Source: Carcharhinus longimanus (taxonomy: Eukaryota). From it: a stretch of 64,000 nt of DNA. The notes under the pieces were generated by a model. The model was not told where the DNA came from. It saw only the letters and a list, made by a program, of their open reading frames with translations, and searched no databases. Location: positions 93,867,814-93,931,813 of the forward strand of contig JASCQW010000081.1 in assembly GCA_030264375.1 (NCBI GenBank). The letters are read 5' to 3'. Positions 730 to 55,106 of the stretch are shown here, piece by piece; position 1 is the first letter of the stretch; every line of letters begins with the position of its first letter. Position numbers and translations under genes: made by a program.

Positions 730-765
730 GGGCTTTTTGCAGGTCATCTTTTAGTCTCTGTATTT
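730..765 (-). CDS. 36-nt micro-exon, copy A ([12 protein letters not shown])
   Basis: Minus strand: ttcttgtttcctccgtcag|AAATACAGAGACTAAAAGATGACCTGCAAAAAGCCC|gtaagc. Confidence 0.8.
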
Positions 766-3700
766 CTGACGGAGGAAACAAGAATTATATCTTCAGTTGC
801 AGACGAGTATTTATGTGGCAAGGTACCTGAGGAAAAGGTATTTGCTGCATCGTCCGAAATAAATAATACAAAAGTTATCCTGTTGCATATAACTTACTGC
901 CATACTGTAAATGAAAAATAATTGATCAATATATGTCCGACTTTCTTCCAGCACATATTATTCGGTCACGAAATATTAGCATTAATAACTATAATTGTTA
1001 GACTGAATCTGCTCTCAAACACTTAAGGCATCAGTAAACGAAATAGCATCATGTTGAATTAAATTGATTTTATAATTCATGAATAACATATTTCAAAATC
1101 AGCATGTGAACACTGGCATATGTTGCCAAACCTATCAGATTTCAAACCAAAATATTACCTCCAGGTCCGATGTCTTTTGTTCAATTGCATCAGTGAAATA
1201 AAATGATAAAACAAGTCAAAATTGTTATCACCAATCAAAAGCTAAAAAAAAATCATTACACGTGTTTTATGTAATGTAATGTAGAATACCCGACGCATCT
1301 TTCTTCGATATATTGACGTTACTCAGCGCGTTCACATCCATTCCCTGACTTCAATATCAGTCATGTCCTCCTCCTTAGTGAATAGCAATTCGAAGGACTC
1401 ATTACAAGTCTCACTCACTTTCTGTGGCTCCCCGCATAAATTCCCTCCGTCATGGATGAATGGGCCTAATTTTTCTCCTGCTCCGATTATATACGATACT
1501 GCATGATTTTCATCTAATCATATCTCCACTTTCCTGGCTTTTCCCCATAGCCCTTTACCCCCCTTTTGATCATTTTCCTTCGCTGTATTGTTCATTGAAC
1601 TGAAACTTTGAGGGATCAAACTCAACAACCAAAAATAAAACAGATGTCCAACGAAGTGCGGGTTAAGTAGATTGGCCATTGTAATTTTTCCCCTTAGTGT
1701 CCTAAGATGATTATGTTGGAGGTATTAGCGGGTAAAATATGGAGGGATATGGGGGTAGGGCTTGGGTGGAATTGTGGTTGGTGCAGACTCAATGGGCCGA
1801 AGACCACATTCTGCACTGTAGAGTTCTATGATTCTTGATCCTATCGAAAAGTAACTCGTTTGTTTAGCCTATTCTTTCTCTTACAACTAAATGCTACATA
1901 AATGACTTAATGGAACATATTGCAATAAAAAACTGGAGGACTCCAATGCATATTTAAATGATTTTTTTTGGCATGATCCACCACATTTGTTTTTATTCTA
2001 TTTTGGACGTCATCAATACGTTTTTGTTATTGCATGCAAGCTTCAATACTTTATTTTTTGTCTCCTTCCATTTCTTTTTTGCATCAGCAAAGAAGGAGGA
2101 TGTACAGCTTGCGATTGCCATAGTGAAATGTCATGTATTTCTTTTCACACTTGCAAAATTGTGCCATCACATGCAGAGACTTCACAGTAGAAATTCAAAA
2201 TGGTGTTGCATGAACGCTTGGCGCGAGATTTGAACTAGGATGCATTATGATGAGAATTTTGTGATTGGGTGCGAAGTTGGAAGGCTAAACAAATAAATGT
2301 TCTTTTGCAAACGTTTTGGGTTTTTTTTTCATCACTACACAATTTACATATCAGTAAAGTATTTTTTAACACAAAAAGCAGCGTGCAAACTATTGTGAAG
2401 GTCAGCAAGACAACTTCGTTCATTTGCATTTTTATTTAAATAAGGGCGAACGGGAGGCAGCCAGTTCTCATCTCTAGGCAGAGTTCAAAGAGCCATTTGG
2501 AGGAACATAAGAACATAAGAAGTAGAAGCAGAAGTAGTCTATCTGGCCCCTCGAGTCGGCTCCACCATTCAGTAAGATCATGGTTGACCTTTTTGTGGAC
2601 TCACCTCCACTTACTCGCCCGCTCACCACAACCCTTAATTCCTTTACTGTTCAAAAGTGTATTTATCCTTGTCCTGAAAACATTCAATGAGGTAGCCTCA
2701 ACAGTTTCACTGGCCAGAGAATTCCAAAGATTCACAGAACGTCGTGTGAAGAAGTTCCTTTTCAAGTCAGCCCTAAACCTGTTTCCCCGTACTTTGAGAC
2801 TATGTCCCCTAGTATTGCTTTCACATGTCAGTGGAAACAACTTCCCTGCTTCTATCTCATCTATTTCCTTCGTAATCTTACCTGTTTCTATGAGATCGTC
2901 ACTCATTATTTGAAGTCCAATGAGTATAGCCCCCATCTAATCAGTCTCTCCTCATATTCCAAATACCTCAACTCCGTAATCAACCTAGTGAATCTCTTCT
3001 GCACCCCCCCCCCCCCTCAATGCCAACACATCCTGTTGTCTCAAGTAAGGAGACCAAAACAGTACATAGTACTCCAGGTCTGGCCTCACCAACATTTCAT
3101 ACAGATGCAACATAACCTCGCTCTTTTTTTAACTCCATCCCTCTAGCAATGAAGGGCAAAAATCAATTTGCCTTCTTAATTACCTGCTGCACCTGCAAAC
3201 CAACTATTGAGATTCTTGCCTAAGGACACCCAGGTCCCTCGGCACAGCAGCTTGTTGCAATGTTTTACCATTTAAATAATAGTCCATTTTGCTGTTATTG
3301 CTACCAAAATGGATGACCTCATATTTCCCGGCATTGTACTCCATCTGTCATATCCCTTTGCAGACTTTCAGCATCTTCTGCACAGTTTGCTCTTCCACCC
3401 ATTTTTTTTTTTGTCATCTGCGAATTTTGACACTTGCTCTCCAACTCCAAGTCATCTGTGTGCAGGAGACACACAAAGAAAATAAAACGATGTAAGTCAC
3501 GGTTAGGCTTAAGCATAATGAGAGGAATCGTAATCCCGTGATCCTGAAAGGGAAGTATAATATGGAATCAGTTAAACAATAAATTATCAGTTAACTGGAG
3601 GATATGTGTGAGTGATCAGCACTGTAGTTACTCAGTTGACGTTGGTGGAGGCAGGAATGATACGTTTCCAAGTGTGGTATTCGGTAAAGAACACAAGATG

Positions 3701-6700
3701 ACATCGGCAAAGTATATTTTCAATTAGAAGTGATGCAGCTAATTATAAATAGTGGATATACGCCAAGGTGCCATTAGAGGCAAAATTGCATGAGTTTCAA
3801 AATTAAGATGCTTTTATCTGAATTGACCTGACTCACAATCGTCGACTAAAGCAATGTAAGTATCAACGTAATTGGAAGTCACAACATAATTATTTTGGAT
3901 AACAACACGTAATTCGTAGCCAAATTCAACCAAAATGATGAGGCGAACTTTGAACATTCAGAAACTCGAAATGTATCTCAAACCTGAGTAACATATTCAA
4001 TACAGTGCAACGGCCAGATCAAAAAAAATGTATCAGGCTGGCTTATGGAGGGAAAGAGTGAGGCATTTTAAAAGATAGGGATATGTTATGAAGGACAACA
4101 AAGATTATGTGTCGGATACTGGCAATGGACCGATGATAGTGCAGGCACGAGGCCATTGCTTTCCTAACCAACAGACCGCTGTCAGTAAGGATGGCCAAAA
4201 CTCCTTTTCCCACGATCGTCCTCACCGCTGATGTTCTGCAATGCTGTGTCCTCAGGGCCGTTCTATATTCCGTTTGCACCTTTGAGTGTATGGCCAAAAT
4301 CCGTTCCAGATTGGTTTTCAAGTTTGCAGTTGAGACCCCTATTATGGATCAGGTTTGAAATAATGACCAAATGCAGTGCAGGAAAGAAGAATACAACCTA
4401 GGCAACTGAGGCGACGACAATAAACTCTCCCTCAATGTCAGCAACACGAAGTGGATGGTCATCGACTTCAGGAAGTGCAGTGGAGGTATGGGCCTGTCTA
4501 CATCAGTGGGTTGGAATTCGAAATGTACGCGTGCATCAAGTTTTTAGATGTCCAGATCAATAGCAACATTTTCTTATAACTCCGTGTAGTCACCATAGTT
4601 AAGACAGCTCACTAATGCCTCTACCTTACCAGGAGACGAAGCAAATTTGGCACGTCCGTTACAATTCTCACCAACTTCTATTGTTGCACCAGAGAAAACA
4701 TTATATATGTTTGTAATAGAGCTTATTATGGCTTCTGCTCTGTCCAAGACCACAAGAAACTATAAGGGTCGTGAATTAAACCAAGTCTAATCCTCAAACC
4801 AGCTGCCAATCCATTGACACTGTCCAAGCTTCCCACTACCTAGGAAAGCCAATCAGCATATCCGTGGGTTTCAGGCACCCTGGACATACACTCTTCCAAC
4901 TTCTTTCATCGCGAAAAAGATACAGACGTCTGAGATCACGTACCAAACGAATCGCAAACAGCTTCTACCCTGTTGCCCTCAAACTTTAAAACGACCTACC
5001 TCACATTAAGTTGATCTGTCTCTACACCCTATCTAATACTGTGACCTACGTTCTGCACTCTTTCCTGTCCTTCCATATGTACGGTTTGCATTGTCTCTGT
5101 AGCACGCAAGAAATAATACTTACCCCTGTATACATGTGACAATGATCAATCGAATCAAATCTAACTAACCGATGATTAGACAGCTCGGCCAATCGCCGAA
5201 TTCAGGCACAACTATGAGATGGGAATATCTAATGATTAGATAGGCTGTGATGAACTACGTGAGAAGAGCCTGAAATAACGATCCATGCACATGTCAACGG
5301 TGAGATAATTGATCTTACGTACGAACAGTTTTCTCCTTCTCTCTGGAAGCATGGTTGCTGGGAAGGGAGGAATGTGCAGTTTACAGGGGGAAAAAAAGGA
5401 GAACATAAAACGATTTCGTTATGAATCTGAAACCACATTCTAGCCATTGCTTGGGAGAGGCTGTGTGAGGGTAAATCCACATCTGGCATGTGGGAGTCTT
5501 TTAAGGCCCAATTGATGTGGCTGCAGGATAGGCATGTGCCTGTAAAAATGAAGGATAAGAATGGTAGGTTTCGAGAGCCGTGCATAACCAGGGAAATTGA
5601 GGGTCTGATCAAAAAGAAAAGAGAAGCGTACGTTTGGTCCAGGCAACTAAGAACAGACAGAAGACTAGAGGAATACAGAGAAAGTAGGAAAGAACTCAAA
5701 CGGGGAGTTAGAAGGGCAAAAAAGGGTTCATGAAATGTTCTTGGCAGGCAAGATTAAGGAGAATCCTAAGACATTTTATACATACTTTAGGAACAAAAGA
5801 GTTGTCAAGGAAAAAAATCGGACTTCTCAGGGTCAAATGAGGGAAATTATGATTAGAGCCCAAGTAGGTCAGGGAGATCGTAAATGAATACTTTGCATCA
5901 GTGGTCACAAAGGAGAGGGGCGTGTTGACTGGGAGTGTCTTAGAGGGAAGTGTTGACCCGTTAGAGAAATTCTCCATTACAAGGGAATATTAAAACTGAC
6001 AAATCCTTAGGGCCTGATGGCATCTACCCTAGACTGTTCAAGGAGACACGAGATGAAATTGCTGGGCCTCTGACAGAGATCTTTGCCGCTTCATTGGACA
6101 CAAAAGAGATCCCTGAGGATTGGAGGATAGGGAATGTGATACCGTTATTTAAGAAGGGTAGTAAGGATAACGCGGGTTGTTATAGGCCGGTGAGCCTGAC
6201 GTCGTGGTAGGGAAGTTGTTGGACAGGATTCTTAGAGATAGGATGAATGCAAATTTAGAACTGAATAATCTCATTAGTGATAGACAGTATGGTTTTGCAA
6301 TGGGAGAACATGCCAGACAAATCTGGTGGAGTTTTTTTGAGGAGGTGACAAAACCGGTTGACGAGGGTAGAGCCGTGGATGTCACCTATATGGATTTTAG
6401 TAAACCGTTTGACAAAGTCCCTCACGGCAGGTTGCTGCAAAAGGATAAATCTCATGGAATAAAAGGAGGTGGCTCGATGGTAGAGAACTGGCGTGGCCAC
6501 AGAAGACAGAGGTTAGTAGTGGAAGGGTGGAGGTCTGTGACCAGTGGTGTACCGCAGAGCTCTGCACTGGGACTTCTGCTATTTGTGACATATACATAAC
6601 TGATTTGGAAGAAGGTGTAACCGGTGTGATCAGTAAGTTTGCAGATGACACAAATATGGCTGGACCTGCGGATAGTGATGACCATTGTCGGAGAATACAG

Positions 6701-9700
6701 CAGGATATAGACAGGCTGGAAAATTGGGCGGACAAATGGCAGATGAAATTTAATCCAGATAAATGCGAAGTGATGCATTTTGGTAGGGCTAATGTGGGGA
6801 GGAGCTACACAATAAATGACAGAACCATCAAAAGTATAGGCGCACAGAGGGACCTGGGTGTGCAAGTCCACAGATCCTTGAAGGTGGCAGCGCGGGTGGA
6901 GAAGGTGCTGAAGAAGGCATATGGCATGCTTGCCATTATAGGACGGAGTATAGAGTATAAAAAATGACGTCTGATGTTACAGCTGTATAGAACGTCGGTT
7001 AGGCCACAAATTTGGAGTACTGCGTCAAGTTCTGGTCACCACACTACCAGAAAGACGTGGAGGCTTTGGAGAGAATGCAGAAAAGGTTTACCAGGATGTT
7101 GCCTGGTACAGTAGCTCCTAGCTATGAGGAACGATTGGGTAAACTGGGGTTGTTCTCCCTGGAAAGACGGAGAATGAGATGAGACCTAATAGAGGTGTAC
7201 ACAATTATGAGGAGTACGGATAGGTTGAACAGTAGGAAGACTTTTCCCCTGGTCGGAGGTGACAAAAACGAGGGGTCACCGGTTCAAGGTGAGGGGGGCG
7301 AGGTTTAACTCAGATATCTGAGGGATATATTTTACACAGAGTGTGGTGGGAGCCTGGAATTCGCCGCCAAGCAGGGTGGTGGAGGCGGACACGCTAGGAT
7401 CGGTTAAGACTTATCTCGATAGTCACATGAGCAAACTGGGAATGGAGGGATTCCGAAGAATGCTCTAGTTGGACCAATGAGGGGCGCAGGCTTGGAGCTC
7501 CGAGGGGCTTGTTTCCTGTGCTACAATGTTCTTTGTTCTTGGTTCAAAATTCGCTGCATGTCCTTCATTTTCATCTAAGGAACTAATTTCAGGGAGTAAA
7601 ATTTGCAATACCCGTGCCCCACTTGTCGTTAGCCATTTCGGCATGTTGTTCTCCACAAGAGCTTCTACATCAGCTGTAAATAAAGTAAGTTAATTCGTTT
7701 TGGTAGCAAAATCAATTGCGAACTCACCACCCAGCTGATCTTTCAGTTTTTGTAACTCTGAAACAAGATGAAATACTGCTGAGACCTTGAGGGATTAAAA
7801 TCGCCGTTCACCGCATCAGAAAAAGTACAAAGCGGAGGAAAAACTAATTGGAATTTTGTATATGTATCGATGATTTCATAATACAATATCATATAGATAC
7901 GGCTGTAATTACAACGTGTTAACCAAGGCCAATTCATTCAGCAGCGTAGCCTAGGGCGCAAGGATGCATTTTCAAATGGCTCAGCAAACCATTAACCTCT
8001 GCATTCTGGGACAACATGTGGTCTACATAGGTCGGCAACTTCAGAATCCAGAGGAGAACGCGTTGTGCAAGTACGCGCAGGTTTCCATAGGTCGGCAAGT
8101 TCCCTGCACCCACACCCGTTCCACCCTGATGTCCGTGTACCGGGGGAAAGCAAGGAAGACAAGTACCAAAAGGGCAATTGACAAGTGCTGCCGTCGTTAT
8201 GAAAATTAATGGAAAGTTAATTCTCCTTGAGAAGCAAAGCATCAAGGCATTCCATTCGCATGCTGTCTGTCAGTGAACGGCAATATTTTTTGGGAAGAAA
8301 GGCAGAATTCTTCTCATTAATTGCCACATAAAATTAACTGTTCAAAAGCACACCTCCGTCTCAAGCCCTCAACCTCCACCCCTCAACGTCACTACTATGT
8401 CTCTTGCCGCTGTGGTGAATGAGGCCAGGCCGAGAATGGAGGGGCGCGCTGGAAAATAGCTAAAAATATAAGGTCCAATCACAAAATGCTGATCACAGTG
8501 ATACTCATTTGTCACTAATTGTCTCACCTTCCTATTCGGGGCAGCCGGTCCAAGGCAGTTACGGATGCGCTTCAGACACCGGGCAATAAACCAGGAAACC
8601 GAAACATGCTCTGGTTGCTATCCAAGGCTGAAGTTGTTGTATTCCTTGCTGACAGTGACGGGGTGAGCAGTTACCTCCGAGAATCATAGCGCAATCTGCA
8701 GGGCCAGTCACCAGCGGTAATAGGAATGATGGTTACTATGCATGCTGCTGCTTTTGCATGAGAGTACGTCTAATGAAGTTACCTTCGACCACAGCTGAAT
8801 CTTAAAACAAATATAGAAGGTTGAGCACTTTTACAGCTGTGAGTCTAGAGCTGCTCTTATGGCTTGAGCGAATTAATGACGCGGGAGAGCTGGCTCGCGG
8901 CCTCAGAAATTAGCGTGGACGCGTTTAATCGAAAAGCAGGCTTGTGACAGCATCGTTCAGGCTCTTGAGACAGAGTTCCAAAGGCACCGAAAAATGCCAT
9001 ACGCACACTGTCTCCAAATAGCTGTCAGCTCTAGACTTCTAATTGGGTTAGGAGCGAGGCCGAGAAGTTCAATCGACTTGGACAGCATTCCTTCTTTGGG
9101 CCCGATCTGAAAAGTAGTAATACTGGCTACATCGAGGATGCCGTTACGATTCATCTACAAATGTAACCCGGAGGCGGGACAGCTTTACTGAGCAATCCAG
9201 CTGGGTTTCATATATGCCGTCGTCACTGCGCTACTTCCAAACGCCATTAAGCAATGCTTCTTCTAAAGGTGCGCGAGTATATTGACCATCATCGTAGTCC
9301 ACTCAAGTGTCGCAATTATATGTTTATTTTGCATGGTGAGTAACAAATGCGCGACACAGCCTACAGCCTACTCTGAGTTTTTTTTTTAAGTGTTAATTTA
9401 AGGTTCGCAAGTTAAAATGCACGAAAAAGTCTATATTCCATCAAAGTTACTGAATGTTATTCACAGAGCTAATACTCAGTTTGTGTCTTGTCTCCTGTAA
9501 GTACCTCTCTCTTTACACTTCGCGTCTTCTTCTGTTGTGATAAAATGAAGAAATAGTAAGGCTCACGTCAGCTGTGTTTCACAGTAATTCAAAAAAATGT
9601 TTATTTAAGATGCACTGAAGCAGTCGATGTTTCATTGAAAATGCCTTTTTTCCCCCTAAAATTATATTGACAACATTACTCTATTTTACTTGACTCTGCA

Positions 9701-12700
9701 CTGTGATGTTGAGAAGGTCATGATCATACACCATATTTTCAAGTTTGTTATGGACTGCTTTTCAGACCACAACTTTGGCAGAATAAAATCACCAATAACT
9801 TGTTGAGAGAGCCGAGTACATCTCACGCAAGGGTTGAACTCATTGGATACCCTTTTGCGCTCATCATTTATATTTAAGTTCCCTCCTGCTGCCACTAATG
9901 TTGTTGTAACAGTGTTAGACACTAATTAGGCTGTCTACTCATTGTAGCAAATTGGGTATGGTGGGCCCTTAGACCAGGTTTGCTGCTAAACAGTTTTGCC
10001 TTCCACTCTGTAGCAGATGTCTTTGAATTCACATTATAGGTAGCATGGAGACCAGTTTCAGAGAGTAATTAGCTTCAGGGTTTCAAGATTAGGGCTTCTA
10101 GAAAAAAAGATGGATGGCCACGGTTAGAAAAATTGTCAATGAGATGGAGTGGAAGCAGCAAGTCTGGAACACTCACGTTGGTGGGAACTTAATGAATGGA
10201 CAGTCGCTAAATAATGATTTGTACCTCTCTCTTTAAATTGGGTGTTTTTATTTCATCGAGTGTAAGTCGATTACTGTGTAACGTTTGTATTCTGTAAACT
10301 CAACAGCTCAGCATTTTTTTTATATAAGGACAATCAGTCAAAGTAAATGTGTTACATTAAACTCTGCTGAAACGTAAGGACAGATGCCTTGCATAGGAAC
10401 ATAGAAGAATGGAGCAGAAGGAGGACATTTGGCCTTTCACACCTCTTCAGCCATTCATCACGATCCTACCCGATCATCCAAATCAATAGCCTGATTATAT
10501 CTTCTCCAGATAATCTTTCATCTCATTCCCGAAAAGTCTATATCTAAAAGTTTATATCTAGCCACGGCATGGTAGCACAGTGGTTAGCACTGCAGCTTCA
10601 CAGCTCCAGGGACCTGGGTACGAATCCTGGCTTGGCTCATTGTCTGTGGGGAATTTGCACATTCTCGTCGTGTCTGCGTGGGTTTCCTCCGGGTGCTCCG
10701 GTTTCCACTTACAGTCCAAAGATGTGCGGGTTAGGTTGATTGGCCATGCGAAAAATTATCACTTAGTGTTGTGAAATGCGTATGTTAGAGTGGCGGGGGG
10801 ATGGTGGTCGGTGCAGACTGGATGGGAAAAATGGTCTCTTCCTGCACTGCGGGGTTTATGTTATTTCGAGCCGCCTGATGCATAGATTCAGTGTTCTGGT
10901 ATCGACTTTTTGCTGTGGTAATGAATTCCACTGGCTCATCACTCTTTGAGTGAGAAAATGTCTCTTCATCTCCGTCCTAAATCCTCGGACTCCGAGCTCT
11001 GTTTTTTGATCATCCTACCATTCGGGTGCATCCTCCATTCATCTACTCTGTCTAGTCCTGTTAGAATTTTCTAAGTGCCTATGAGATTCCTCCCTCATCT
11101 GCCTGAGCTCCAGCGAAAATATCGTGAGCTAATCAATCCCAAGGAGAAGGAAACATGCTACACGGAGGGCGAGACATCCATGGCTGACGAGGTAAGTCAA
11201 GCACAGCAATAAACTAAAGGAAAAAAAACATACAAAGTGACGAGGGTTTGTGGGAAACCAAAGGATCAAGATGGCTTTAAAAGAGAGCAGATGACAACTA
11301 AAGAAAAAAAAACAATGGGGGGGGGGTGGTCAGAAGATGAAATATAAGTGTAAGCTAGCTAGTAACAAAAAAATAAGGTGGGAAGCCTAATTCTTTTTTT
11401 AGTATATTGAAAGGTCAGAGAGTGGCAAAAATTGCTACTGGACCACTGGACAGTGAAGCTGGATAAATAATAATAGGGAACAAGGAAATGGCAGAGGAAC
11501 TGCATAGTTACTTTGTATCACTCTTTATGACGGAAGACATCATTGGGATGGCAGAGCACCAGGAAAATTGGGGAGCACAGATGAGTGTAGTGGTCAATAT
11601 TAAGGATAAGATCCTGGGGCACCTGAAAAGTCTGAGGGTGAATAAGTCACCTGGACCGAATGAACCACACTCCAGGAATCTAATAGAGATAGCTGAGGAA
11701 ATTGTGGAATCATTGGTGTGATCTTGCAGGAATTACTGGAGGCAGGGATAAGCCCAGAGTATTGCAAAGTAGCTAATGCAACACCACTGTTTAAGACGGG
11801 AGGAAACGACGCACGGGAAATTATAAGCTAGTTAGCCTGACTTTGTTCATTGGCAAGGTCTTAGAGTCCAATAATAACGATTAATAACGGGAAGTACTTG
11901 GAAATGTGTAACAAAATAGGGTGGAGTTATCAAGGCTCCGTCAAGGGGAGTTCATGTCTCACAAATCTGTTAAAGTTCTTTGAAGAGATAAAAAGAAAGT
12001 TGGATGGAGGAAAACCAGTGGATGTTACCTATTCAGATTTCTAAAAGGCCTTTAATAATGTGCCACATAGGAAACTGCAAAATAAGCTGAGAGCCCACAG
12101 TATTAAGGCTAAGATAAGAAATGGATCAAGGATTGGCTGACTGGCAGAGTGCAAATAATGGGGATAAAGTGATCTGCTTCAGGGTGGCGACTGGTCACTA
12201 TTTGTGTGCCTCAGAGGTTGGTGCTTTGAACCCAACTTTTCACAAAATACTTCAATGTTTTGATAGAAGAAACTAAAGGCATTGTTGGTAAGCTCGCAGA
12301 GGATACAAGTATATGTATAGAGGGACAGGTAGTATTGAGGAAACGAGTGGCGATGGCGTGGGGGTGCTGCAAAGGACTTGCTCAGGTTACGAAAGTGGGG
12401 AAAGAATTGGCAGGTAGAATATATTGTGGAGAAGTGTGAGTGTATGCATTTTGTGAGGAGGAATGGAGGCGTAGACTATTCTACATGAGGAAATGCTTAA
12501 GAAATCAGAAGAACAAAGGGACTTGGGAGTCCTTGCACGATACATTTTTGCTGTTAAACCAGAGAGGTCGTCATCTTGTTCTTCTTCTTTGTACGTGTTA
12601 ATCGTGCAATGCCACACCACAAGTGCAAACAGAAATAACTTGTCAGATGCCCGTGAGCCTTCAAAAGAATCCCTTCAATTATAACAAGTCTCCAATTCTA

Positions 12701-13832
12701 AGAGTGCTTCTCATAGAAGGCCAGAATCCGGAGTGTCAGTAATTCTGACAATACTAATAACATGCACAGAAGAGAACTGCCTGACTGGGTAGGTAATCAA
12801 TACCACAACATGGAGTCCATACTCCAAGAGGCCATCCTCATTGTTGTTATTACACCTACGCTAGTCTAACTTGATTTTCGTTAAGGAAGGCGTCGATGGC
12901 CTGTTTCAATGGCCACTCGTCACCCATCTGTGTCCTTCCATACAACCTACTGAGCCCTTGTTATTTTAAAGTACACAATCGCATGGAGATGTGCAATCGG
13001 TAATAAAAGTGGCCAATGTCAGAACCTCTCTACAGCCCACGTAATTGTGGCACGTCTTCGCATCTCCTGCCTCCCCAGGAGGTTCAGTGCTGCATGCCAC
13101 GTTCGATTAGCTGTTGATCAAATGCGACCCCATCTTAACCAATTCATATATGTCAATGTTAATTTACAATTCAGAAGTACTTGCAACGTCAACGCAAAAC
13201 AAAACAAAAAATTAATGTCGCTGTTCTATTTAATCTGGCTTACGGGCTTTTTGCAGTTCATCTTTTAGTCTCCTTATTTCTGATGGAGGAAACAAGAAAT
13301 ATATCTTCAGTTACAGGTGAGGATTTATGTGGCAACTGAGGAAGGGTNNNNNNNNNNNNNNNNNNNNNNNNNNNNNNNNNNNNNNNNNNNNNNNNNNNNN
13401 NNNNNNNNNNNNNNNNNNNNNNNNNNNNNNNNNNNNNNNNNNNNNNNGAAGATCCGCGAACACCTCCACAAAGAGACATTTTGAAATCGGACATTGTCAT
13501 TTGTGGATATTACGGACTAGTTGAGGGTCCTGCAGTCTCTCTATATGTGTGTTTTGCACTTCCTACAACGTGTGTCCCCACGACCACGACACCCGAAATC
13601 TTACCCTGCCCCTTGCTGAGCTGGGGGCCGGAAGGAGGACTGGTGCTGTGGAACGAGGGAGAAATTGTATATGACGATGTAAAACACGAGATCCTGCCTG
13701 TTCTGATCGATATCTCAGGGATCCAAGTGCCGGGATACTGTTCGGAACAGACATGAAGTATGTATCAAATGCTGGGCAGAGAAACCATAAAGCGGGCTAT
13801 CGATGCGATGGGAGCAACACAATATAGAGGCA

Positions 13833-13864
<32 letters not shown>

Positions 13865-43800: not shown

Positions 43801-46800
43801 TAATTGTGTTGAAGGTTGAGTTGTCGTCAATAAGTAGGATCTGAAATAGATGTCCTTGTTATCTAACTGTTTCAACGTCGAATGCAGGGCCAGAGAGGTG
43901 GCGCCTGCGGTGAACTTGTGGTGGTGGTAGGCAAAATGTAGTGAATGCCGGTCGTCCAGGAGGCTTCAATTGATTCCTGCCATGACTAGCTTCTCGAAGC
44001 ACTTCATAATGATGGATGTCAGAGCAACCGGCCGATAATCATGAAGGCGCGCTGCTTGGTTTTTCTTAGGTACCAGGATGATGGTCGCCTTCTTGAAGCA
44101 GATAAGAACATCAGACCACGTGTTGACCTGTACTGTCTATCTATGTTTAACCTCATTGGCACGTGGTATAGGAAGTACTCTTAGATTACGGCCGAAGAAG
44201 TCCTGCTTTTTTAAATTTCCTACTGCTGCTGCAGACCGCGTCACATGTCCTCGCTATGCCGTCAGTACAATATCTGATTGTTCACCTTCTCCCTTCAGAA
44301 TGTATTCTGCCAGTTCAGAGACATCCTGGATCCTGATACCAGGGAGGCAACATTCCACCCTGGAGTCTATTTCACGCCTACAGTAAAGTTATCAGTAACC
44401 CTAACGAAATAGTCCTCTTTAATTATTACTCTTTGTCCCTCCCTTCTTTGTAACACAGACTGCTGTGGTGTCACTGTTTTGCTGCTGCATTTATTAGCCC
44501 TGATAGGCCATCCCCCAGTATCCAAAACTATTTACTTATTAGAGGTGGGGACGGCCACAAGGAATTTATGCACTTACTGTCTGCCCCTTCTAGCGAGCAC
44601 TCATCTATCTGCCTGCAGCTTGGATGTCACCACATCACTAAAACACTTGTTTGTTTTACGCAAACTTCATGCTCATTAGACCATGCAAATTTTCCTCCAA
44701 CCATCCCTGCGGTCCGTTTGGACTCCATTTGGATGCACTTCCTTCGCATGTATTCGTCCGAGGTGCTGGAAGAGTTATGGATCTCCCACATCTCATTAGT
44801 GTAGCAGTAAACACAATGACTGACATTTCAATCACCAACTAAATTATTTAAGACAATTCACTAAACGCTTGTCTTCACTTATAGCTGCAGGTGCTTACTT
44901 TCTACTTATTTTTGACTGTGTTGCCAAATTCCCCTCCAACTCGATTTTCAAGTTTGCTGGTGACACCAGCGTTGTGGGTAGGATCTCAAATAATAACGAG
45001 ACAACGTGCAGAACAGTGATAGAGAAACTGGTGAACTGAGGCGACAAAACGAATCTGTCCCTCAATGTCAACAAAGCGAAGGAAGTAGTCGTAGACTTCA
45101 GGAAGCAAAGAGAAGTGCATGTTCTTATCGATATCAATGGGGACGAAATAGAGAAAGATCGAGAGCTTCAAGGTCTTAGAAGTACAGATCACCAACAAAC
45201 TTCCTTGGGCCCCCCATGCAAACGTTATAGTGAAAGAAGCCAATCAACACACCTACATTCTCATGAGACAAAGGGAATTTGGCATGTCCGCAAAAACTCT
45301 CACTAATTTCGACAGATGCGCCTTGGAAAATATCCCTTCTGGTTGTATCACGACTTGGTATGGCTCCTAGACTGTCTAAGACCGCATGTAACTAGAATGC
45401 TCAATTCAGCCTAATATCCATTAACAATGTTTACACTTCCTATTGCCTCAGAAAATCAGTCAGCATAATAAAAACACCCAACGCGGCCAGGACATCCTCT
45501 CTTACACTGTCTTCTGTCTTCTGTCGGAAACAATCCGAAGTCTGACATCACGCGCCAACCGACTCAAAAACAGCATCTCACTGCTGGTATAAGACTTTTG
45601 AATGGACCTACCCTGGCATTAGGTTGATATCTTTCTACACCTTAGCTACGGCTGTAACGTTACTTTCTGCACTCTCTATTTCCTTCATCATGTACGGTAT
45701 TCATTGTCTGTATTGTCGACAAGAAGCATACTTTGCGTTGTTCAATGATACATCTGTCAAAAATAAATCAAACCAAGCCATAAGGGAATTCGCCCGACAA
45801 CCACGTTGAGGTCTATCTGAGAATGAGATAACCTGCAAAGCACTACCTGACACTGGCTTGAAACAATGTTTACTTCCGTTATCAACAGCGGATATAGCGA
45901 ACAACTGATATTGCTAAGGAAAATTTTTCTCCATTTCACAGGAAGGCTTGCAGCAAGGAAGGGAGGAGTTTGCAGCTTCCAGAAAATTAGGGACAATAAA
46001 AATGAATTCGCCGTGAATCTGAATCTAACTTCATGTCTTTCACTTTCCATCTAACGACTCTGATATTTCTCAGTGAAATTAGTAAACCTTGGCCCCCACT
46101 TCCGATGACCTTTTTAGTTTACTGCTCTTCGTAAATGCTCAATGCATCAGCTGTAGGTAAAACACGTTATTTGAGCTTGCTAGCATTATCAAGCAGCGAA
46201 CTCACCCTTCAGTTGATCTTGCAATCTTTGTAGCTCTGAAACAAGTTTAAAAAATAACTACTGTGACTTGAAGGATTTTTCACTGCAGGATTTCGTTCAC
46301 TGCATCAGAATAACAACAAATCGGATAAAATGTTGTTTGGAATGTTCTATATATGGAGACATGTATATATAATGTATGTAAATTTAGGAATTATTTATAA
46401 CATGCTTATCCAGACCAGTCCACTCAGTCGATTCCGCCAAAGCTTAAGGGTGCATGCTTACAGGGCTCAGTAAACAATTACGCGACTCTTGCATTCGCCG
46501 TCTAATTTGTGAAAACACGGAACAACATGGACAGAACAGATCTCTTGCAAGTATACGCAGGCAAGTGTTCTGCCCCCTTTGCCAATCATCCATTGTGCCT
46601 GTTACCCAGTGGGAAAGCAGTGAAGACATAAACCAATGGAACATAAACCATCAACTCATTCCGCCCACCTGTCGTCTGTCAGTGAAACGCAATATTAAAA
46701 AGAAGAAAGATAGAATCTATCTCACTTATTTATGTGTAAAATTAATGCATACGAAATGTTCAGCTGTCCATCAGCACCCCGCCGTCCCACCTCATTACTT

Positions 46801-49800
46801 CGTCCCTTGCCGCTGTGATGAGTGAGCCGAGGCCGGAAAGGAAGGAGAGTGCTTGAAAACGATTAAACAGTTCCGGCCTCATCACGAAATACTGCTCATT
46901 TTAAAACTCAATGGTCACTCGTTGTCGCAATTATCTTCCTGCCGCGATTTGCTCACGGCAGCTTCGGATGTGCTTCAGTCGACTTGCAATAAACCAAGGG
47001 GGCGGAACGTGCCTGTTGACGATCGGCGCTATAATTTGTATATTCCCTGCGGATAATGACGGGCCGGGCAATAACATGCGAGATTCATTCATAGCTTAGG
47101 GAATAGGGTCAGCAGGCATACAAAAAAAGAACGATGACTGTTATCTATGCTGCTAATTCTGCATGACACTACGTTCAAGTGAAGTAGGCGTCAGATGACA
47201 GCGGTATTATTTTTAATAAAGACGGGTGAGCGTCGTTACATCTGTCAATCGGTGCTACGCTTGGTAGGTTGATCGACTTAGAGACAGGGAGAAGGCGATG
47301 TAAGAATTAATGAGGGCGCGTTTAAGCGAAAAGCAGCCTTGTGACAAAATCGTCCTGGCTCTTGGGGCGAAGCTTCAGTGGCTTCTGGCATGCCACACGC
47401 GCACTGCTTCCAAGCAGCTGTCACGTCTGGAGTTCTGCTTGGGGGACGAGTGAGGCCGAGAACGTTCAGACGTGATCGGAGAGCGCATTAGCTTGGGCCC
47501 GATCAGGGGAAAAATAAAAATGAGTCTGACCAGCGTCCAGAATGCTGCTTTCGATTCCTCCGGGAAGCTAATCCAGAGGCGGGCAGAGTTTGCTGAGCAG
47601 TCTGAAAGGGATTCGGATATGCTGTTATCACTGCAATCATTCCAAGTTTCCCACACCAAAGCTTTCTCTCAATCTGCGGGAGCATCCTGGCCAACGTCGC
47701 AGTTCACTGAAACGTTTATTTTATGTTTATTTCACAGGACAGCAACGAATGCGCGGCGCAATGTGTTGCATGCACTGAGTAATATTAAAATGGAAATCAC
47801 ATGAATTGCAAGATAAAATCCTTCTAAGTAAAAATCCATCCTCTAATAAACATACTGAATGTTATAAGAAGAGCTGAAATTCAATTTCCATTCTTTGTCC
47901 TGAAGTACCTCTTTCTTTATATTTCAGATCGTCTTCTGTTGTGGCAAAACGAAGAACATTTTAAGGTTTGTGTCATGTGTGTTTGACAGTAATTAAATAA
48001 TAGTTTGCCCAGTACGTTAGGTGAGCTGAAGCATTCGATGTTTCACCGAAATGGCATTGTTACCTAAAATTATATTAACAGAAATGCACTGCTTTGCTTG
48101 ACCTTGTACCGAGACGTATTGAAGTTCCTGATCATAGATCACATTTTTCAGTTTGTTATGGGTAGTTTCTCAGAGTACAATTTCATCAAAGTAAACTATC
48201 CACAAACTTGGTGAGAAAGGGAGTCCATCGATTATAACGTTAGACTCATTCGACAACCACGTCATTTTGTCCTTATATATTTAAATTAACCATCTCGCCA
48301 CCACAGCTTTTTAACAGTGTTCGACTAATCACGGTAAAGCAAAATACTGGGGATGTTGAAATCTGAAACAAAAAAAAGTTTAATGTTGGAAAATCTGAGA
48401 AGCTCAGACAGTATCTGTGGAGAGAACTAAACTTGAGAATCTTCATGACGCTTTGTCAGGGTCTGATTAAGCTGCGTTAAAGCAGCAAATCGACTTAGGT
48501 GGGCCATCAGACTTGATTGATTGCTGCGCAGGTTTGCATTTCAATTCACAGCAGATATGTGTAAAGCATATTATAGGTGGGCATGGGAGTACCACAGATT
48601 ATTTATTTATTTTTTGGTGTCACCAGTAGGCTTACATGAACACTGCAATGATTTTCAGTTACTGTGAAACTTCGAGATTTGGTGAATAGTGTTTCTTGAA
48701 GAATGAGGGATGATCAACTTTACAAGAAAGTCGGAAAGAAGGAGCGGGAGACAACAAGAAATCAGGTTGGCAGGCAGTAAATAAATGAATAGTGATGGTG
48801 AAGTTTATGTTTTACACTCACTTGGCTGTTTTTTTTTAATCGAGCATCGTGTAATGTTTGCACTGTGTAAATTAATAGCTTGACTGGTTAAATTATTTAC
48901 ATAACGACAATCAGTCATTGAACAAAGAAGTATTTGCCAATTAAAAGACTGTTGAAATGATTGGACAACCGACTTGGTGCGAGCTACTGAACACAGCAAC
49001 ATTCGACAGGTACATCATGTACAGAAAATGTTCCCATCGGAATGGATCAGATGGAAATCAAAATTAGGAGAACGATTTGTTTTCTGCAATGTATAATGCA
49101 GACATCATATGATATTGAGAGCCATCAGTAAATTTCAGTGACGAAGAGCCAAATTTCAGTTGCTACATTCTGCTTTCTCCCAAAGGACGGAAAAAGGGGC
49201 ATGGTATGTTTTGTACCGCAACCAAAAATCCTGACCAAAAAAAAGCGCATAATTTAGATATTCTCTACAAAAAAGCAGGCACGTGTTCTCAAGCAGAATC
49301 ACAAAATAATAACATAGAACGATCTTGAAAAAATAACTTGTTATGACAGTCGTGGTTCTCTTTATCAAGGTTACCAAGTTGACGATCCTCGAGGATAAAT
49401 GCAATGGTGCCGTTATTTCGCAAGGTGGTGGTACACTTCAAGTTTACTTCATGTTAACTAGCAACGTTTATATCGTCAGGTATACCCGCTACGAAACAAT
49501 GGTGCCTTCGTAAAACATATTGATTTAGATGGGAAAGCAACAAGCTCCAGCACCGATAAACCTGGGCGCCCAACAACCATACTTTCATAGCCTGGAAATC
49601 ATTATGTCCTTATACTGCGTTCATTGTGTGTTATCGAATCATTCAAGACGTTAATATATCGAGAAGTCTAATCGTTTTCTCAAAGATAAATGTAAGGCAT
49701 TATTAAATGCTTCTTGGATGCCCAATTTTCCAACGTCCACTGAAATCCGTATTTATTTTGCGCATGGTTATTTTTCCTTGTGGGTTGATCTAGCTCCATT

Positions 49801-52800: not shown

Positions 52801-55106
52801 TCGATGGGTGCAGCTCCAAAAGCAGTCATGACGTTTCTCACCATCCGGAATGACAAAAAAACTGCCCACTTGCTCGGCATCACATCTACAGATGTTCACT
52901 CTTTCCAAAACCGATGCTCAGTTTCAGCGGTGTGTACTATATACAAGTAATTCACCAACGAACCTTTCAGAACAACTTCCGAACCCGCCTTCACTTTTGT
53001 CCATAAAGGCAAGGGCAGCAGGTTCATGAAAAAAAAACAGCACCCGCACTTTCCCCTCCAAGCCACTATCCCTCCTAACTTGGAAATATATCATTAGCAT
53101 ATGTCCCTTCACAGTCGTTGGGCCCAAATCGTGGAATTCGTCCCCTAAAGTTATTGAGAATCAATTCACATCACATGGGCTACAGCGAATCAACAGGCGG
53201 TTCAGCATCATCTGCTCAAGGGCAACTGGGAATGGACAAATAATGCTGGCCAGCGGGTGAGCCTACGTCTCATGAATTATTCATAAACGTTTCGGGAGTG
53301 TGTGAAGAGCAAACCAAACATTCAAATAAAGCAAACATGTGGACAATTATACCCGGAAGTTCATTTCGGATGCCCCAAGGAACACTAATTTCATTAATTT
53401 AGTTGTTTTTCCGCCAGCCAAATAGGCATTTCTGCGCTGCTACTTTCATATGTGTGCTTGTGTGTGTGTGAGTGTGTGTGTGTGTGTGTATTGGGAAAAC
53501 ATTGCACTTATTCCTGGATAGACAATAAACTTGAAAATACAACCTTGTTCTAAGTAAGAGTTGAAATACTGATTACTCTGGAATAACTGGGTGTGGGATT
53601 CATCGTGATAAAGATTTTGGATCAATTCGAAAAGTTGTTTATTGATCCATTCAAACTTGCAGCGAGAATCAATCCCTGTGGGAAAACCTGAACTCTATAC
53701 AATGTGTAACTGTGCAGAAGTCAAGTATTGTCATGATTATCGTTAAAAAAATGTAAATAAACGAACATATCTGCAATTCCAAATGGGATGATCTAAATAG
53801 TCAAACCTCTGTGTTTTAAGACAGTGACGATTTTATGAAAAGATGCTTGGGATGTGGGGAGACACAGAACATTGTAATGCAACTTTTATGTAGGATATAA
53901 AATGTGTCCTTATCGATGTGTTGATGGTAGCATTTTCTGATAAAATATGTTTTTTTTTAACAGTAAAAATGGAACCTGGTAGTTGGCTAAAATATATATT
54001 CAGTGCACAGGGTGCTCGCTTTCTATCTTGTTCTAACTCAGCTCAAAACTTTCACGACCTGTAGATCTGCAGACACGTTTTGCCATTCTCTATACCCAGC
54101 CTGTGAATCCATCTCAAGGTTAACTTCTGTTTTTTTGCTACTGCTTTCAACATTTTGCGCTACGTATGTCTTTCCAATATTCGTTTTGGCATTAAAAATG
54201 GATGTACCTCTTCACTTGTCTGATGCAATGTATATTATTTTTCAACTTGCAACTTAGCATATTTGGACGGCCTCTTTTTTCTCACAGATAACTTATTTTA
54301 TTTTCCAGTCTTCCAATGCACCTAATAACATCGCTATATTGTACAGTCTTACGTGCTTCTTCAATCGTTATATGCCCGACCTTTCGTTCCACTGATCAGT
54401 TATTTTTAGCTTCAAGAAATGTCTTCCGCCTGAAACTATCTGCCTTCTGCGTTGAACATCACATCTGTTCTCTTTTGTCAAAAATAGACTGAATTACGTG
54501 TCCCCCCCACGCCCATGATACAATATCCTTAAATATAGACCATATTTTCACCTAATATATTTATTCCGAATACGATCCTCGTTCAGAAGCTTTTTTATCC
54601 ATCTTGTAGATTTCAATTGAAGCGTATTTTCATGCCCCCTCCTACATTGGAGCGCAGTGTCCTGAAACGCCGGGTTATTTTGTTTGTTCAGATCTTATTG
54701 AATAAAATAGTGATGCATTCCTGATATAAAACATAGGCATGAGTGATATTGCTCTTTGTGACTAAATATAAACTCTGAATAAAGACCAATGTTTAATTGC
54801 TTTCTTCATAGTTATCTATTGGAATTTTGACAATACATTTTAAAATACAAACTCTAAACGTGGAACAAAGATGTGTGTTTAACTTCTGCAGAAGTGGGTA
54901 ATGAATATGTCTGATTTCATCAGAAATGTTATGTCCGTTACCTGCCACGCCCTACCTTCTGGCTCTCATTACCTTCGTTAATGCTCTTTTGCTTTTTGCT
55001 TGCAGGAACACTTGTTATTTTAAAAATTGTATGCAAGTGCACATTTTTCGTGTACAAATTATTGCCTTACCAGCTTTTTGCAGGGCTTTTTTCAAGTTTT
55101 CTAACT
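730..55106 (-). CDS. Partial multi-exon gene: coiled-coil protein built from repeated phase-1 micro-exons (31-aa repeat), both ends outside or unresolved
   Basis: 15 minus-strand exons of 27/30/36 nt with polypyrimidine-AG and GT donors. Spliced frame is open: [83 protein letters not shown]-[gap][31 protein letters not shown][gap][43 protein letters not shown]. No indels or stops in the exons, whereas flanking introns have many indels. Confidence 0.8.
1645..1834 (+). mobile_element. HE1-type SINE, 3' half
   Basis: gtgcgggttaagtagattggcc...gcagactcaatgggccgaa...ctgcactgtagagttctatgattc. Confidence 0.8.
2503..3452 (-). mobile_element. CR1/HER1-type LINE, 3' fragment
   Basis: (gaacataa)n tail; minus [36 protein letters not shown], typical of the CR1 ORF2 C-terminus. 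Confidence 0.9.
4040..5165 (+). mobile_element. Rex1/Babar-type LINE, decayed RT and 3' end
   Basis: Homologous to 20830-21955 ([22 protein letters not shown]); (aatca)n tail. Confidence 0.8.
5435..7544 (+). mobile_element. CR1/HER1-type LINE, 5'-truncated ORF2 (RT), specific to copy A
   Basis: [47 protein letters not shown] with frameshifts; (gttcttt)n tail. Empty site in copy B at ~22220 (gaaacca|aaatt). Confidence 0.95.
7728..7757 (-). CDS. 30-nt micro-exon, copy A ([10 protein letters not shown])
   Basis: tttcatcttgtttcag|AGTTACAAAAACTGAAAGATCAGCTGGGTG|gtgagt. Confidence 0.82.
7950..9360. promoter_or_regulatory. CpG-retaining intronic block with ISRE-like, CCAAT and GC-box motifs (paralogs ~22620-24030, ~27155-27660, ~36700-37910, ~46450-47760)
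   Basis: Visibly more CG dinucleotides than the flanks; GGAAACCGAAAC 8594-8605; CCAAT ~8475; GAGGCGGGAC ~9171. Function is inferred only. Confidence 0.3.
9505..9531 (-). CDS. 27-nt micro-exon, copy A (QEDAKCKER)
   Basis: cttcattttatcacaacag|AAGAAGACGCGAAGTGTAAAGAGAGAG|gtactt. Confidence 0.78.
10566..10866 (+). mobile_element. HE1-type tRNA-derived SINE nested in a minus-strand CR1 tail (10395-11130)
   Basis: A box tagcacagtgg, B-box-like ggtacgaatcc, central gtctgcgtgggtttcctccgggtgctccggtttc, LINE-derived tail. Confidence 0.9.
11140..12540 (+). mobile_element. Decayed CR1-type LINE ORF2 fragment
   Basis: [18 protein letters not shown]; remnants of DF.KAF..VPH. Paralogous to 25860-26819 and 29700-30750. 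Confidence 0.85.
13244..13279 (-). CDS. 36-nt micro-exon, copy B' ([12 protein letters not shown])
   Basis: tttcttgtttcctccatcag|AAATAAGGAGACTAAAAGATGAACTGCAAAAAGCCC|gtaagc. Confidence 0.8.
13481..15207 (+). pseudogene. env: Retroviral env pseudogene (class I fusion protein, short SU and long TM ectodomain)
   Basis: [22 protein letters not shown]; furin site RSKR (13861-13872) then fusion-peptide-like [14 protein letters not shown]; helical region; Cys-rich segment (RYCVATT..LICPIP..NFCF); membrane-proximal heptads ([15 protein letters not shown]); TM helix [26 protein letters not shown]. Several stops and frameshifts. Confidence 0.82.
13833..13860. repeat. (AC)14 microsatellite inside env
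   Basis: Seen directly. Confidence 0.95.
15337..15986 (+). repeat. 3' LTR (650 bp)
   Basis: Terminal inverted TGTTA/TAACA, TATAAA at 15827-15832, AATAAA at 15918-15923, immediately after the PPT. Confidence 0.88.
16433..16468 (-). CDS. 36-nt micro-exon, copy B ([12 protein letters not shown])
   Basis: tttcttgtttcctccatcag|AAATAAGGAAACTAAAAGATGAACTGCAAAAAGCCA|gtaaga. Confidence 0.8.
18775..19112 (+). mobile_element. HE1-type SINE, specific to copy B
   Basis: ggggcggcacggtagcacagtggttag...gggttcgattcc...gggttctatgattc; absent at the homologous sites ~2385 and ~33850. Confidence 0.93.
19228..20210 (-). mobile_element. CR1/HER1-type LINE, 3' fragment (paralog of 2503-3452)
   Basis: Minus ORFs [20 protein letters not shown] and [32 protein letters not shown]. 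Confidence 0.9.
20830..21955 (+). mobile_element. Rex1/Babar-type LINE fragment
   Basis: [36 protein letters not shown]; (aatca)n tail. Confidence 0.85.
22403..22432 (-). CDS. 30-nt micro-exon, copy B ([10 protein letters not shown])
   Basis: tttcatcttgtttcag|AAATTCAAAGACTGAAAGACCAACTGATTG|gtgagt. Confidence 0.82.
24181..24207 (-). CDS. 27-nt micro-exon, copy B (xDELRYKER)
   Basis: cttcattttatcacaacag|AAGACGAATTGAGATATAAAGAGAGAG|gtactt. Confidence 0.78.
25273..25592 (+). mobile_element. HE1-type SINE (paralog of 10566)
   Basis: Same SINE motifs and same insertion site. Confidence 0.9.
25860..26819 (+). mobile_element. Decayed CR1-type LINE fragment (paralog of 11140-12120)
   Basis: [19 protein letters not shown]; ends at a gap. 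Confidence 0.85.
26968..27141 (+). pseudogene. THAP zinc-finger domain pseudogene fragment (intronless)
   Basis: One frame from ATG 26968: [57 protein letters not shown]. Fits the THAP pattern M..C....C....FH.FP......W...V.R....P.....LCS.HF, with the first Cys codon replaced by TGA and the His lost. Confidence 0.85.
27794..27820 (-). CDS. 27-nt micro-exon, copy C (QDDLRHKDR)
   Basis: cttccttttatcacaacag|AAGACGACCTGAGACATAAAGACAGAG|gtactt. Confidence 0.78.
28786..29014 (+). mobile_element. HE1-type SINE (paralog of 10566), truncated by a gap
   Basis: ggcatggtagcacagtg...gggtttcctccgggcgctccgg. Confidence 0.88.
29437..30750 (+). mobile_element. Younger CR1 3' tail (29437-29688) followed by an older decayed CR1 fragment
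   Basis: [15 protein letters not shown] and (ttcttatg)n tail, then a paralog of 11490-12540. Confidence 0.85.
31465..31500 (-). CDS. 36-nt micro-exon, copy D ([12 protein letters not shown])
   Basis: cttgtttcctccgtcag|ATATAAGGAAAACAAAAGAGGAACTGCAAAAAGCCC|gtaagc. Confidence 0.8.
34545..35675 (+). mobile_element. Rex1/Babar-type LINE fragment (copy D)
   Basis: [20 protein letters not shown]; (aatcg/aatca)n tail. Confidence 0.85.
35722..36075 (+). mobile_element. CR1-type LINE insertion spanning a gap, specific to copy D
   Basis: [16 protein letters not shown] before the gap; gggccgaagggcctgtttcc...(gttcttt)n tail after it. Confidence 0.85.
36481..36510 (-). CDS. 30-nt micro-exon, copy D ([10 protein letters not shown])
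   Basis: tttcatcttgtttcag|AGATTCAAAGACTGAAAGACGAACTGCGTG|gtgagt. Confidence 0.82.
38055..38081 (-). CDS. 27-nt micro-exon, copy D (EEDVRYKER)
   Basis: cttcattttatcacaacag|AAGAAGACGTAAGATATAAAGAGAGAG|gtactt. Confidence 0.78.
38925..39318 (-). mobile_element. CR1 3' tail without the nested HE1 SINE (empty-site version)
   Basis: Homologous to 10395-11090 but continuous across the SINE position (~39088). Confidence 0.8.
39475..39510 (-). CDS. 36-nt micro-exon, copy E ([12 protein letters not shown])
   Basis: tttcttctttcttccctcag|ATCTGCCAAAACTAAAAGATGACGTGCGAAGAGCCG|gtgagg. Confidence 0.8.
39990..40610 (-). mobile_element. Old CR1 ORF2 fragment (paralogs near 1320-1480, 17020-17390, 32020-32340)
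   Basis: Paralogous minus-strand translation [24 protein letters not shown]...E.FE.LFTK. Confidence 0.7.
42463..42687 (-). mobile_element. Young CR1 3' tail running into a gap
   Basis: (gaacataa)n tail; [19 protein letters not shown]. Confidence 0.9.
43332..44110 (-). mobile_element. Rex1/Babar-type LINE fragment
   Basis: (gatt)n tail; reverse complements of [15 protein letters not shown] and [10 protein letters not shown]. Confidence 0.8.
44115..44810 (-). mobile_element. CR1-type ORF1 (esterase-region) remnant
   Basis: Reverse complement of ~44330-44370 reads [18 protein letters not shown], resembling the SGNH-like CR1 ORF1 motif. Confidence 0.7.
44895..45778 (+). mobile_element. Rex1/Babar-type LINE fragment (copy E)
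   Basis: [37 protein letters not shown]; same unit position as the other Rex1 fragments. Confidence 0.85.
46206..46235 (-). CDS. 30-nt micro-exon, copy E ([10 protein letters not shown])
   Basis: ttttaaacttgtttcag|AGCTACAAAGATTGCAAGATCAACTGAAGG|gtgagt. Confidence 0.82.
47909..47935 (-). CDS. 27-nt micro-exon, copy E (EDDLKYKER)
   Basis: cttcgttttgccacaacag|AAGACGATCTGAAATATAAAGAAAGAG|gtactt. Confidence 0.78.
49500..50100 (-). mobile_element. Highly decayed CR1-type RT fragment
   Basis: Reverse-complement remnants of DF.KAFD (~49700-49725) and GVPQG (~49555-49575). Confidence 0.5.
52500..53283 (+). mobile_element. Old CR1/L2-group LINE, 3' end
   Basis: Remnant of NILG..DKKINWT.HI; tail ctgctcaagggcaactgggaatggacaaataatgctggccagc. 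Confidence 0.75.
53451..53489. repeat. Imperfect (TG)n microsatellite
   Basis: Seen directly. Confidence 0.9.
55071..55106 (-). CDS. 36-nt micro-exon outside the array ([12 protein letters not shown])
   Basis: attgcttgttttag|AGTTAGAAAACTTGAAAAAAGCCCTGCAAAAAGCTG|gtaagg. Same length, phase and LQKA ending as the in-array 36-nt exons, in flanking DNA not recognisably homologous to the units. Confidence 0.8.

Follow-up and report, generated by a model that had tools for sequence, protein, structure and literature searches.

The question raised by this locus is whether very short, recurrent open segments on the minus strand are exons of a single gene, and what kind of protein such a gene would encode. 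The window, by which we mean the whole stretch of 64,000 nucleotides of Carcharhinus longimanus DNA that was analysed (C81:93867814-93931813, C81 being its contig), had been described in a first-pass annotation as holding one micro-exon gene whose coiled coil grows by tandem duplication. The evidence below indicates that the exons are very probably functional parts of a long coiled-coil gene that grew by duplication of exon cassettes.

Micro-exons and tandem units in the window

A DNA-profile search and a splice scan recovered all 15 minus-strand exons that had been proposed, each in phase 1, free of stops and bounded by AG and GT (Table 1). Six are of 36 nt, five of 27 nt and four of 30 nt, 471 nt in total, and on the minus strand the series runs from 55106, where the first exon starts, to 730, where the last one ends. 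The profile search found no decayed exon copy at any homologous position in the window. A ranking of 3,658 open candidates on both strands, made with splice matrices whose training set was 21 exons from beyond the window, put 13 of the 15 exons among the first 40.

Self-alignment showed that tandem units cover 1 to 48.2 kb of the window at 63 to 91% identity. The annotated pattern of three exons per unit holds for four complete units, but two others are cut by 100-N gaps. Likewise, 14 of the 15 exons rather than all of them belong to duplicated units, because the flanks of the exon at 55106 show no similarity to the others. The proposed unit length of about 12 kb fits one of the two measurable spacings between successive 36-nt exons, 12.5 kb, but not the other, 8.0 kb; the extents are roughly 8 to 12.5 kb. 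The coding fraction, given earlier as below 1%, is 0.74% at the longer spacing but 1.16% at the shorter. There are at least six units provided that the assembly order is correct; N gaps lie at 13348, 26820, 29015, 32465, 35843, 42688 and 55510, the first two being of unknown size.

Table 1. Exons, tandem units and an insertion in the window (positions counted from its first letter).
Feature	Position	Strand	Basis
Complete tandem unit; homology extends about 3.2 kb past window start	1..12534		Self-alignment
36-nt exon; 42 further curated exons within 158 kb 3' of window	730..765	-	Profile search/splice scan
30-nt exon	7728..7757	-	Profile search/splice scan
27-nt exon	9505..9531	-	Profile search/splice scan
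Partial unit, ends at assembly gap	12535..13347		Self-alignment
36-nt exon, unit cut by gap at 13348; surroundings 91% identical to 16468 copy	13244..13279	-	Self-alignment
Insertion missing from other units, non-coding for the array gene	13448..15986	+	Self-alignment, inspection by eye
Tandem unit, three exons, ends at assembly gap	15987..26819		Self-alignment
36-nt exon	16433..16468	-	Profile search/splice scan
30-nt exon	22403..22432	-	Profile search/splice scan
27-nt exon	24181..24207	-	Profile search/splice scan
Partial unit, begins at assembly gap	26920..30744		Self-alignment
27-nt exon, unit cut by gap at 26820	27794..27820	-	Self-alignment, profile search/splice scan
Tandem unit, 75-76% identical to 3' units	30750..39450		Self-alignment
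36-nt exon	31465..31500	-	Profile search/splice scan
30-nt exon	36481..36510	-	Profile search/splice scan; second conserved window
27-nt exon	38055..38081	-	Profile search/splice scan; top conserved window
Most diverged unit, 63-71% identical to others	39451..48229		Self-alignment
36-nt exon, oldest unit	39475..39510	-	Profile search/splice scan
30-nt exon, oldest unit	46206..46235	-	Profile search/splice scan
27-nt exon, oldest unit	47909..47935	-	Profile search/splice scan
36-nt phase-1 exon, array member outside duplicated units	55071..55106	-	Profile search/splice scan, flank comparison

Flank identity climbs from about 0.65 in the 5' unit to 0.85 to 0.91 in the 3' units, a ladder consistent with successive unequal crossing-over. 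The copies at 12804-13347 and 15987-16536 are 91% identical overall, yet the 78 alignment columns next to the gap show no difference at all, which might reflect gene conversion or a collapse of younger copies. We rejected the idea that the units are alleles for those that lie 12 to 37% apart, and it is unlikely for the two copies of 91% identity that flank the gap at 13348. An attempt to date the units was also discarded: at the published pedigree mutation rate of 7e-10 per generation (PMC10587355), intron distances of 0.10 to 0.47 correspond to more than 1e8 generations for most pairs, which is impossible.

The insertion in Table 1 is confined to one unit and abuts an assembly gap. Judged by eye, it resembles the 3' portion of a decayed LTR retroelement and has env-like remnants, and its longest open reading frame has no Pfam match. 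Decayed LINE fragments lie at 5200-7500 and 19900-21300 of the window, and two open reading frames at 6186-6964 match RVT_1.

An array of 58 curated exons over 222 kb

The local tandem episode proposed earlier is real, but that description missed a far larger array, in which 36-nt and 27-nt exons are paired elsewhere. We followed the exons for 200 kb on the 3' side of the window and for 40 kb on its 5' side; positions are counted from the first letter of the window, values above +64 kb lying 5' of it in the sense of the minus strand and negative values 3' of it. Exons of these types go on for 158 kb on the 3' side, where the DNA is not duplicated, and reappear 5' of the window. From 107 minus-strand candidates, 58 exons were picked by eye on size, splice score and coil-like composition. 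They span +64081 to -157571, or 222 kb, and give 1,767 nt and 589 codons without a stop. Thirty are of 27 nt, 22 of 36 nt, four of 30 nt, and one each of 24 nt and 21 nt; 51 of the 58 end in G, and the median intron is 3.2 kb. None of the 1,653 ordered pairs of these exons creates a stop at the junction.

High-scoring candidates of 27, 30 or 36 nt in the 222-kb span number 60 on the minus strand versus 2 on the plus strand, a count that includes overlapping alternatives and 30 exons from the training set. From -200 to -160 kb there are none on either strand, and from +64 to +104 kb there are one on the minus and two on the plus strand; these exon-poor stretches could be gene boundaries. Exons recur up to 270 kb further 5': at least six more of 36 and 27 nt occur at +155 to +184 kb, and a 36-plus-27 pair lies at C81 94.139 Mb. 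Divergent phase-1 candidates of 36, 27 and 12 nt are scattered in the 5' exon-poor zone (about +85750, +90411, +95106 and +103935), and they may link the blocks at 93.7-93.93 and 94.02-94.14 Mb into one gene.

A search with a one-mismatch pattern located a 27-nt exon near -57.2 kb that is missing from the list of 58. A local duplication of 540 bases at 89% identity flanks a 36-nt exon at -55532 to -53105. Beyond the last typical exon on the 3' side, candidates with strong acceptors but without coil-like composition occur at -192442, -182082 and -179913 and are possible C-terminal exons. When the 10 kb that follow the array on its 3' side served as query in a DNA search, the matches were all repeats.

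Chromosomal setting and paralogous clusters

On the MHC chromosome, the array is bracketed by RPS5 and an RBM4-like gene. The anchors on C81 are RPS5, with introns, at 91.87 Mb, an RRM gene at 94.38 Mb, Ig_2 genes at 95.2 to 95.6 Mb and PBX at 96.09 Mb, and their order matches the shark gene table in the available part of a published elasmobranch MHC survey supplement. In the portions of those tables available to us, the white shark table lists no gene for 1.80 Mb after the NRM cluster, and the sawfish table lists none for 0.96 Mb, followed by RBM4B-like genes. The array falls in the matching interval of both tables, and we infer that the gene-free intervals of white shark and sawfish hold the same exons. 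BTN and TRIM genes surround the array on C81. Farther away, the minus strand at 90.30 to 90.35 Mb carries five C-type lectin domains, each in a single exon, which are probably the mannose-receptor-like gene of the sawfish MHC table.

A pattern for the 27-nt exon had 27 matches genome-wide compared with 0 for the control, and 68 compared with 16 when one mismatch was allowed. Of the 68, 19 lie at C81 90.98-94.14 Mb, all on the minus strand and 18 of them within 92.0-94.14 Mb; 26 lie on a second chromosome, C119, at 6.36-11.21 Mb, in five blocks whose neighbours mostly alternate in strand; and 23 lie elsewhere in the genome. Because the pattern was built from C81 exons, only the matches on C119 and in distant parts of C81 are independent. 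Another exon pattern gave 59 matches versus 22 for the control, five in or beside the window and five in the C119 cluster, and a further one was barely above its control (8 versus 6). A 10-kb sample of C119 contained phase-1 36-plus-27 pairs together with an internal duplication of 7.2 kb whose copies are 69% identical; growth by cassette duplication therefore recurs in the family. Isolated pattern matches at C81:90981768, C43:64776505, C162:44621181 and on C692, C14074, C25833 and C946 may be more family members or linker exons of BTN or TRIM genes.

It is conceivable, and we put this forward tentatively, that the 1 to 2 Mb of gene-free MHC after NRM and before the RBM4B-like genes, together with the 5-Mb block on C119, represent an ancient, undescribed family of giant genes. 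Such genes would consist nearly entirely of two interchangeable micro-exon modules, one of 36 and one of 27 nt, and lack any recognised head domain; they would lie in CpG-rich and probably germline-unmethylated DNA, and cassette duplication or skipping would set the length and supercoil pitch of the rod. We found no description of such a family in the literature outside subscription journals.

Searches for head domains

The statement that no Ig, TM or B30.2 exon is visible in the window stands, and the wider search found none near the array either. The 346 kb that were read of the 2.5-Mb C81 interval yielded no exon with a start or stop and none for a TM segment or globular domain. These searches bear on the idea that the array is a true BG-like member of the B7 group, whose cytoplasmic tail the micro-exons encode and whose divergent Ig V exon and TM exon lie on the 5' side, in a gap or at C81 94.14-94.35 Mb. 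We regard this as a doubtful but serious alternative, which is compatible with the mechanics of a rod but would fix its identity. It draws on the position in the MHC among BTN and TRIM genes and on our comparison locus, a shark butyrophilin gene with V, C2, TM, a 27-nt phase-1 exon and B30.2, in which the small exon sits between TM and B30.2. Chicken BG tails consist of 13 to 36 small heptad exons of 21 or 24 nt, with no B30.2 (PMC4046983).

Against it, queries with the shark BTN V exon (75 of 75 candidates scored), the BTN TM exon (6 of 6) and C2-set_3 (57 of 57) matched nothing at C81 90.3-99.7 Mb or C119 6-11 Mb. V-set, Ig_2, Ig_3, C2-set_2 and C1-set gave no match at C81 91.9-94.3 Mb or in the C119 cluster among the 150 candidates scored for each, out of 928, 889, 1,641, 188 and 258, respectively. 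MHC_I and RRM families had no match at C81 91.9-94.3 Mb, and no B30.2-type open reading frame occurs in the 200 kb 3' of the window. C2-set matched nowhere in the genome and was an uninformative query. Candidate TM or signal exons at +96.7, +81.2 and +57.2 kb were not convincing.

Among the candidates scored, the array thus shows neither the C2 nor the B30.2 exons of a butyrophilin, membership of the butyrophilin/BG group is unsupported, and the array's exons are of 27 and 36 nt and not of 21 (sometimes 24) nt as in BG, whereas the predicted array does share the BG-like trait of a long heptad tail made from many small exons. The precedent drawn earlier from BG and butyrophilin tails fits in design, but no BG or BTN ectodomain, TM exon or B30.2 was found near the array. 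Protein searches with the exon alignments found nothing real; they had no power, because the spliced model itself scores below zero on those profiles. Their single match, P0001, was rejected as an unrelated repeat matching intron-derived columns.

Heptad register and predicted splicing

The 36- and 30-nt exons carry hydrophobic residues at codons 2, 5 and 9, and their heptads start at g in 20 of 22 and 4 of 4 cases, respectively. Half of the 27-nt exons (15 of 30) have a hydrophobic codon 4 and start at e. With these starts, a 36-plus-27 pair forms three in-register heptads, or 21 amino acids. In alignment, the 30-nt exon corresponds to codons 1 to 10 of the 36-nt type, and the junction from a 30-nt to a 36-nt exon shifts the register by 4 in all four cases, which is a stammer; each unit therefore carries one. 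The hydrophobic period over a 62-residue run is 3.45.

Among the 57 junctions of the 58-exon list, 20 are in register compared with 14.3 after shuffling (P = 0.036), so that the list is incomplete or contains false exons, unless the rod is interrupted or its splicing varies. Since all exons are phase 1-1 and multiples of 3, any duplication or skip keeps the frame. One might thus read the array as a pool of exons for combinatorial skipping or mutually exclusive use, yielding many rods of varied length and surface, with the 30-nt exon maybe an alternative to the 36-nt exon. The frame-neutral exons, stop-free in any order, would allow this, as would the likeness of the 30-nt exon to the start of the 36-nt type, the exact 21-residue periodicity that returns when the 30-nt exon is skipped, and the 37 of 57 genomic-order junctions that are out of register. 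Exon skipping is described for BG tails (PMC5043582). Missed exons, such as the 27-nt exon near -57.2 kb, account for the out-of-register junctions equally well, however, and we consider such a pool unlikely.

Linkers and lectin necks

Coiled coils also occur in TRIM linkers and in the necks of type II C-type lectins, and the necks of lectins such as CD23 use phase-1 exons of 63 nt, the sum of 36 and 27. This arithmetic and the TRIM genes crowding the flanks of the array speak for an extended version of one or the other. The domains that should accompany them did not appear: PRY was found neither at C81 91.8-94.8 Mb nor on C119 (150 of 171 candidates scored), B-box neither at C81 91.82-94.76 Mb nor at C119 6-11 Mb (150 of 277), and Lectin_C was absent from the interval (119 of 119) and, by motif scan, from the 43 kb after the last exon. 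The lectin result is not absolute, because intron-split domains score weakly, but an origin of this kind appears improbable.

Constraint on the exon copies

Differences between copies had been called largely synonymous, which proved wrong: 13 of the minimal changes leave the residue unaltered and 29 replace it, and the synonymous share of 0.31 equals the 0.307 expected without selection when transitions are weighted. Pairwise pS is 0.27 and pN 0.20; dN/dS is 1.8, 0.37 and 0.41 over the three exon classes, with pN exceeding pS in the 36-nt class. A dN/dS ratio near 1, one of the outcomes that the first-pass annotation had named as speaking against it, is indeed reached after transition weighting (about 1), but other tests show constraint. 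Exon identity is 0.76 to 0.80, only 6 to 9 points above the flanking intron. Such values would fit a reading in which the window exons are dead or never used and were passive passengers of segmental duplication.

Four observations make that reading very improbable. All 14 duplicated exon copies retain AG, GT, length and an open frame, although the introns are 9 to 37% diverged. Across four copies per class, only 1.7%, 2.5% and 1.8% of exon-size intron windows are gap-free with invariant edges, versus all three exon classes. The two best-conserved 40-base windows across units coincide with the 27-nt and 30-nt exons. Finally, the replacements are conservative, as had been stated: 18 of 25 score 1 or more in BLOSUM62 compared with 45% expected (P = 0.006 for the mean), by a minimal-change method that leans slightly toward conservative replacements. 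Coiled-coil core positions are hydrophobic in 31 of 32 cases. Splice sites, the length of the exons and the bias toward conservative replacements all show selection, which dN/dS does not, and the constraint would appear to act on frame, length and helix, leaving surface residues free.

A conservation scan across the units detected no further conserved coding segment, start or terminal exon beyond the three internal exons. For that reason we regard the unit as a 31-codon cassette and not as a gene, in agreement with the earlier proposal of one gene running through the units, and the same exon types run on outside them. That each 8- to 12-kb unit is a separate small gene is thus scarcely credible, common as tandem gene arrays are in this region.

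A probable modular coiled-coil rod

We think it likely that the locus is one long, largely constitutive gene for a modular coiled-coil rod of an undescribed family, which lengthens by exon-cassette duplication. The micro-exons would be spliced into one frame, with each 36-plus-27 pair adding three in-register heptads. Five or more rounds of unequal crossing-over would have duplicated the 27-30-36 cassette together with its introns, the oldest copy lying 5', and each duplication would add 31 residues and one stammer. If selection acts on length, helix and core and not on exact residues, the product may serve as a spacer, tether or dimerisation rod. The guess that we favour is a rod, either anchored in the membrane or cytoplasmic, whose exons descend from linker exons of the butyrophilin or TRIM type, as in chicken BG tails, and which is possibly expressed in the germline.

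Chicken BG genes resemble the array in MHC linkage, a heptad region made from tiny exons, expansion of three- or four-exon repeats by unequal crossing-over, and the lack of B30.2. Among them, BG1 grows by a four-exon repeat and BG0 by a three-exon repeat (PMC5043582; compare also the review PMC8813856 and PMC12841164). They differ in exon size (21/24 nt versus 27/36 nt) and in number, with 13 to 36 exons per BG gene versus at least 58 over more than 220 kb here. The shark cassettes are of 8 to 12.5 kb, and no V domain or BTN-type TM exon was found with them. Shark butyrophilin, in the example compared, shares the 27-nt phase-1 exon after the TM exon and the same chromosome region; unlike the array, with which none of these domains was found, it has V, C2, TM and B30.2 and few heptads.

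In LPA kringle IV-2, the CR1 long homologous repeats, the nebulin and titin triplicates and NBPF, multi-kilobase exon-intron duplication likewise lengthens a protein in frame. In those genes the repeats encode folded domains or exons of 100 nt or more, whereas the shark units are about 1% coding, in pieces of 9 to 12 residues of a continuous helix. Human TSBP1/C6orf10 probably has many small exons, is expressed in testis and lies beside NOTCH4 and BTNL2. The shark array, for its part, is about 2 Mb from a PBX2-type gene, and orthology with TSBP1/C6orf10 is a lead only.

If the rod gene is real, the MHC of the oldest jawed vertebrates, their most studied immune region, contains a large gene and a gene family that have so far stayed hidden, and an apparent gene desert there becomes an annotation blind spot. 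The gene would also be a test case for whether the heptad micro-exon tails of BG, butyrophilin and TSBP1 share an old MHC-linked module, and an example of a protein region in which selection maintains length, frame and helix even though dN/dS looks neutral.

CpG content of the array

The observed/expected CpG ratio is 0.56 to 0.89 at all 28 array loci on C81 and 0.79 on C119, compared with 0.28 at a BTN locus 6.5 Mb away and 0.38 at C81 94.20 Mb, where a 3-kb sample proved to be repeat. With two small controls, the high ratio suggests, as a lead, germline hypomethylation of the array, a state that has reportedly, though with dispute, been linked to structural mutability. LINE pieces inserted in the array reach a ratio of 0.55.
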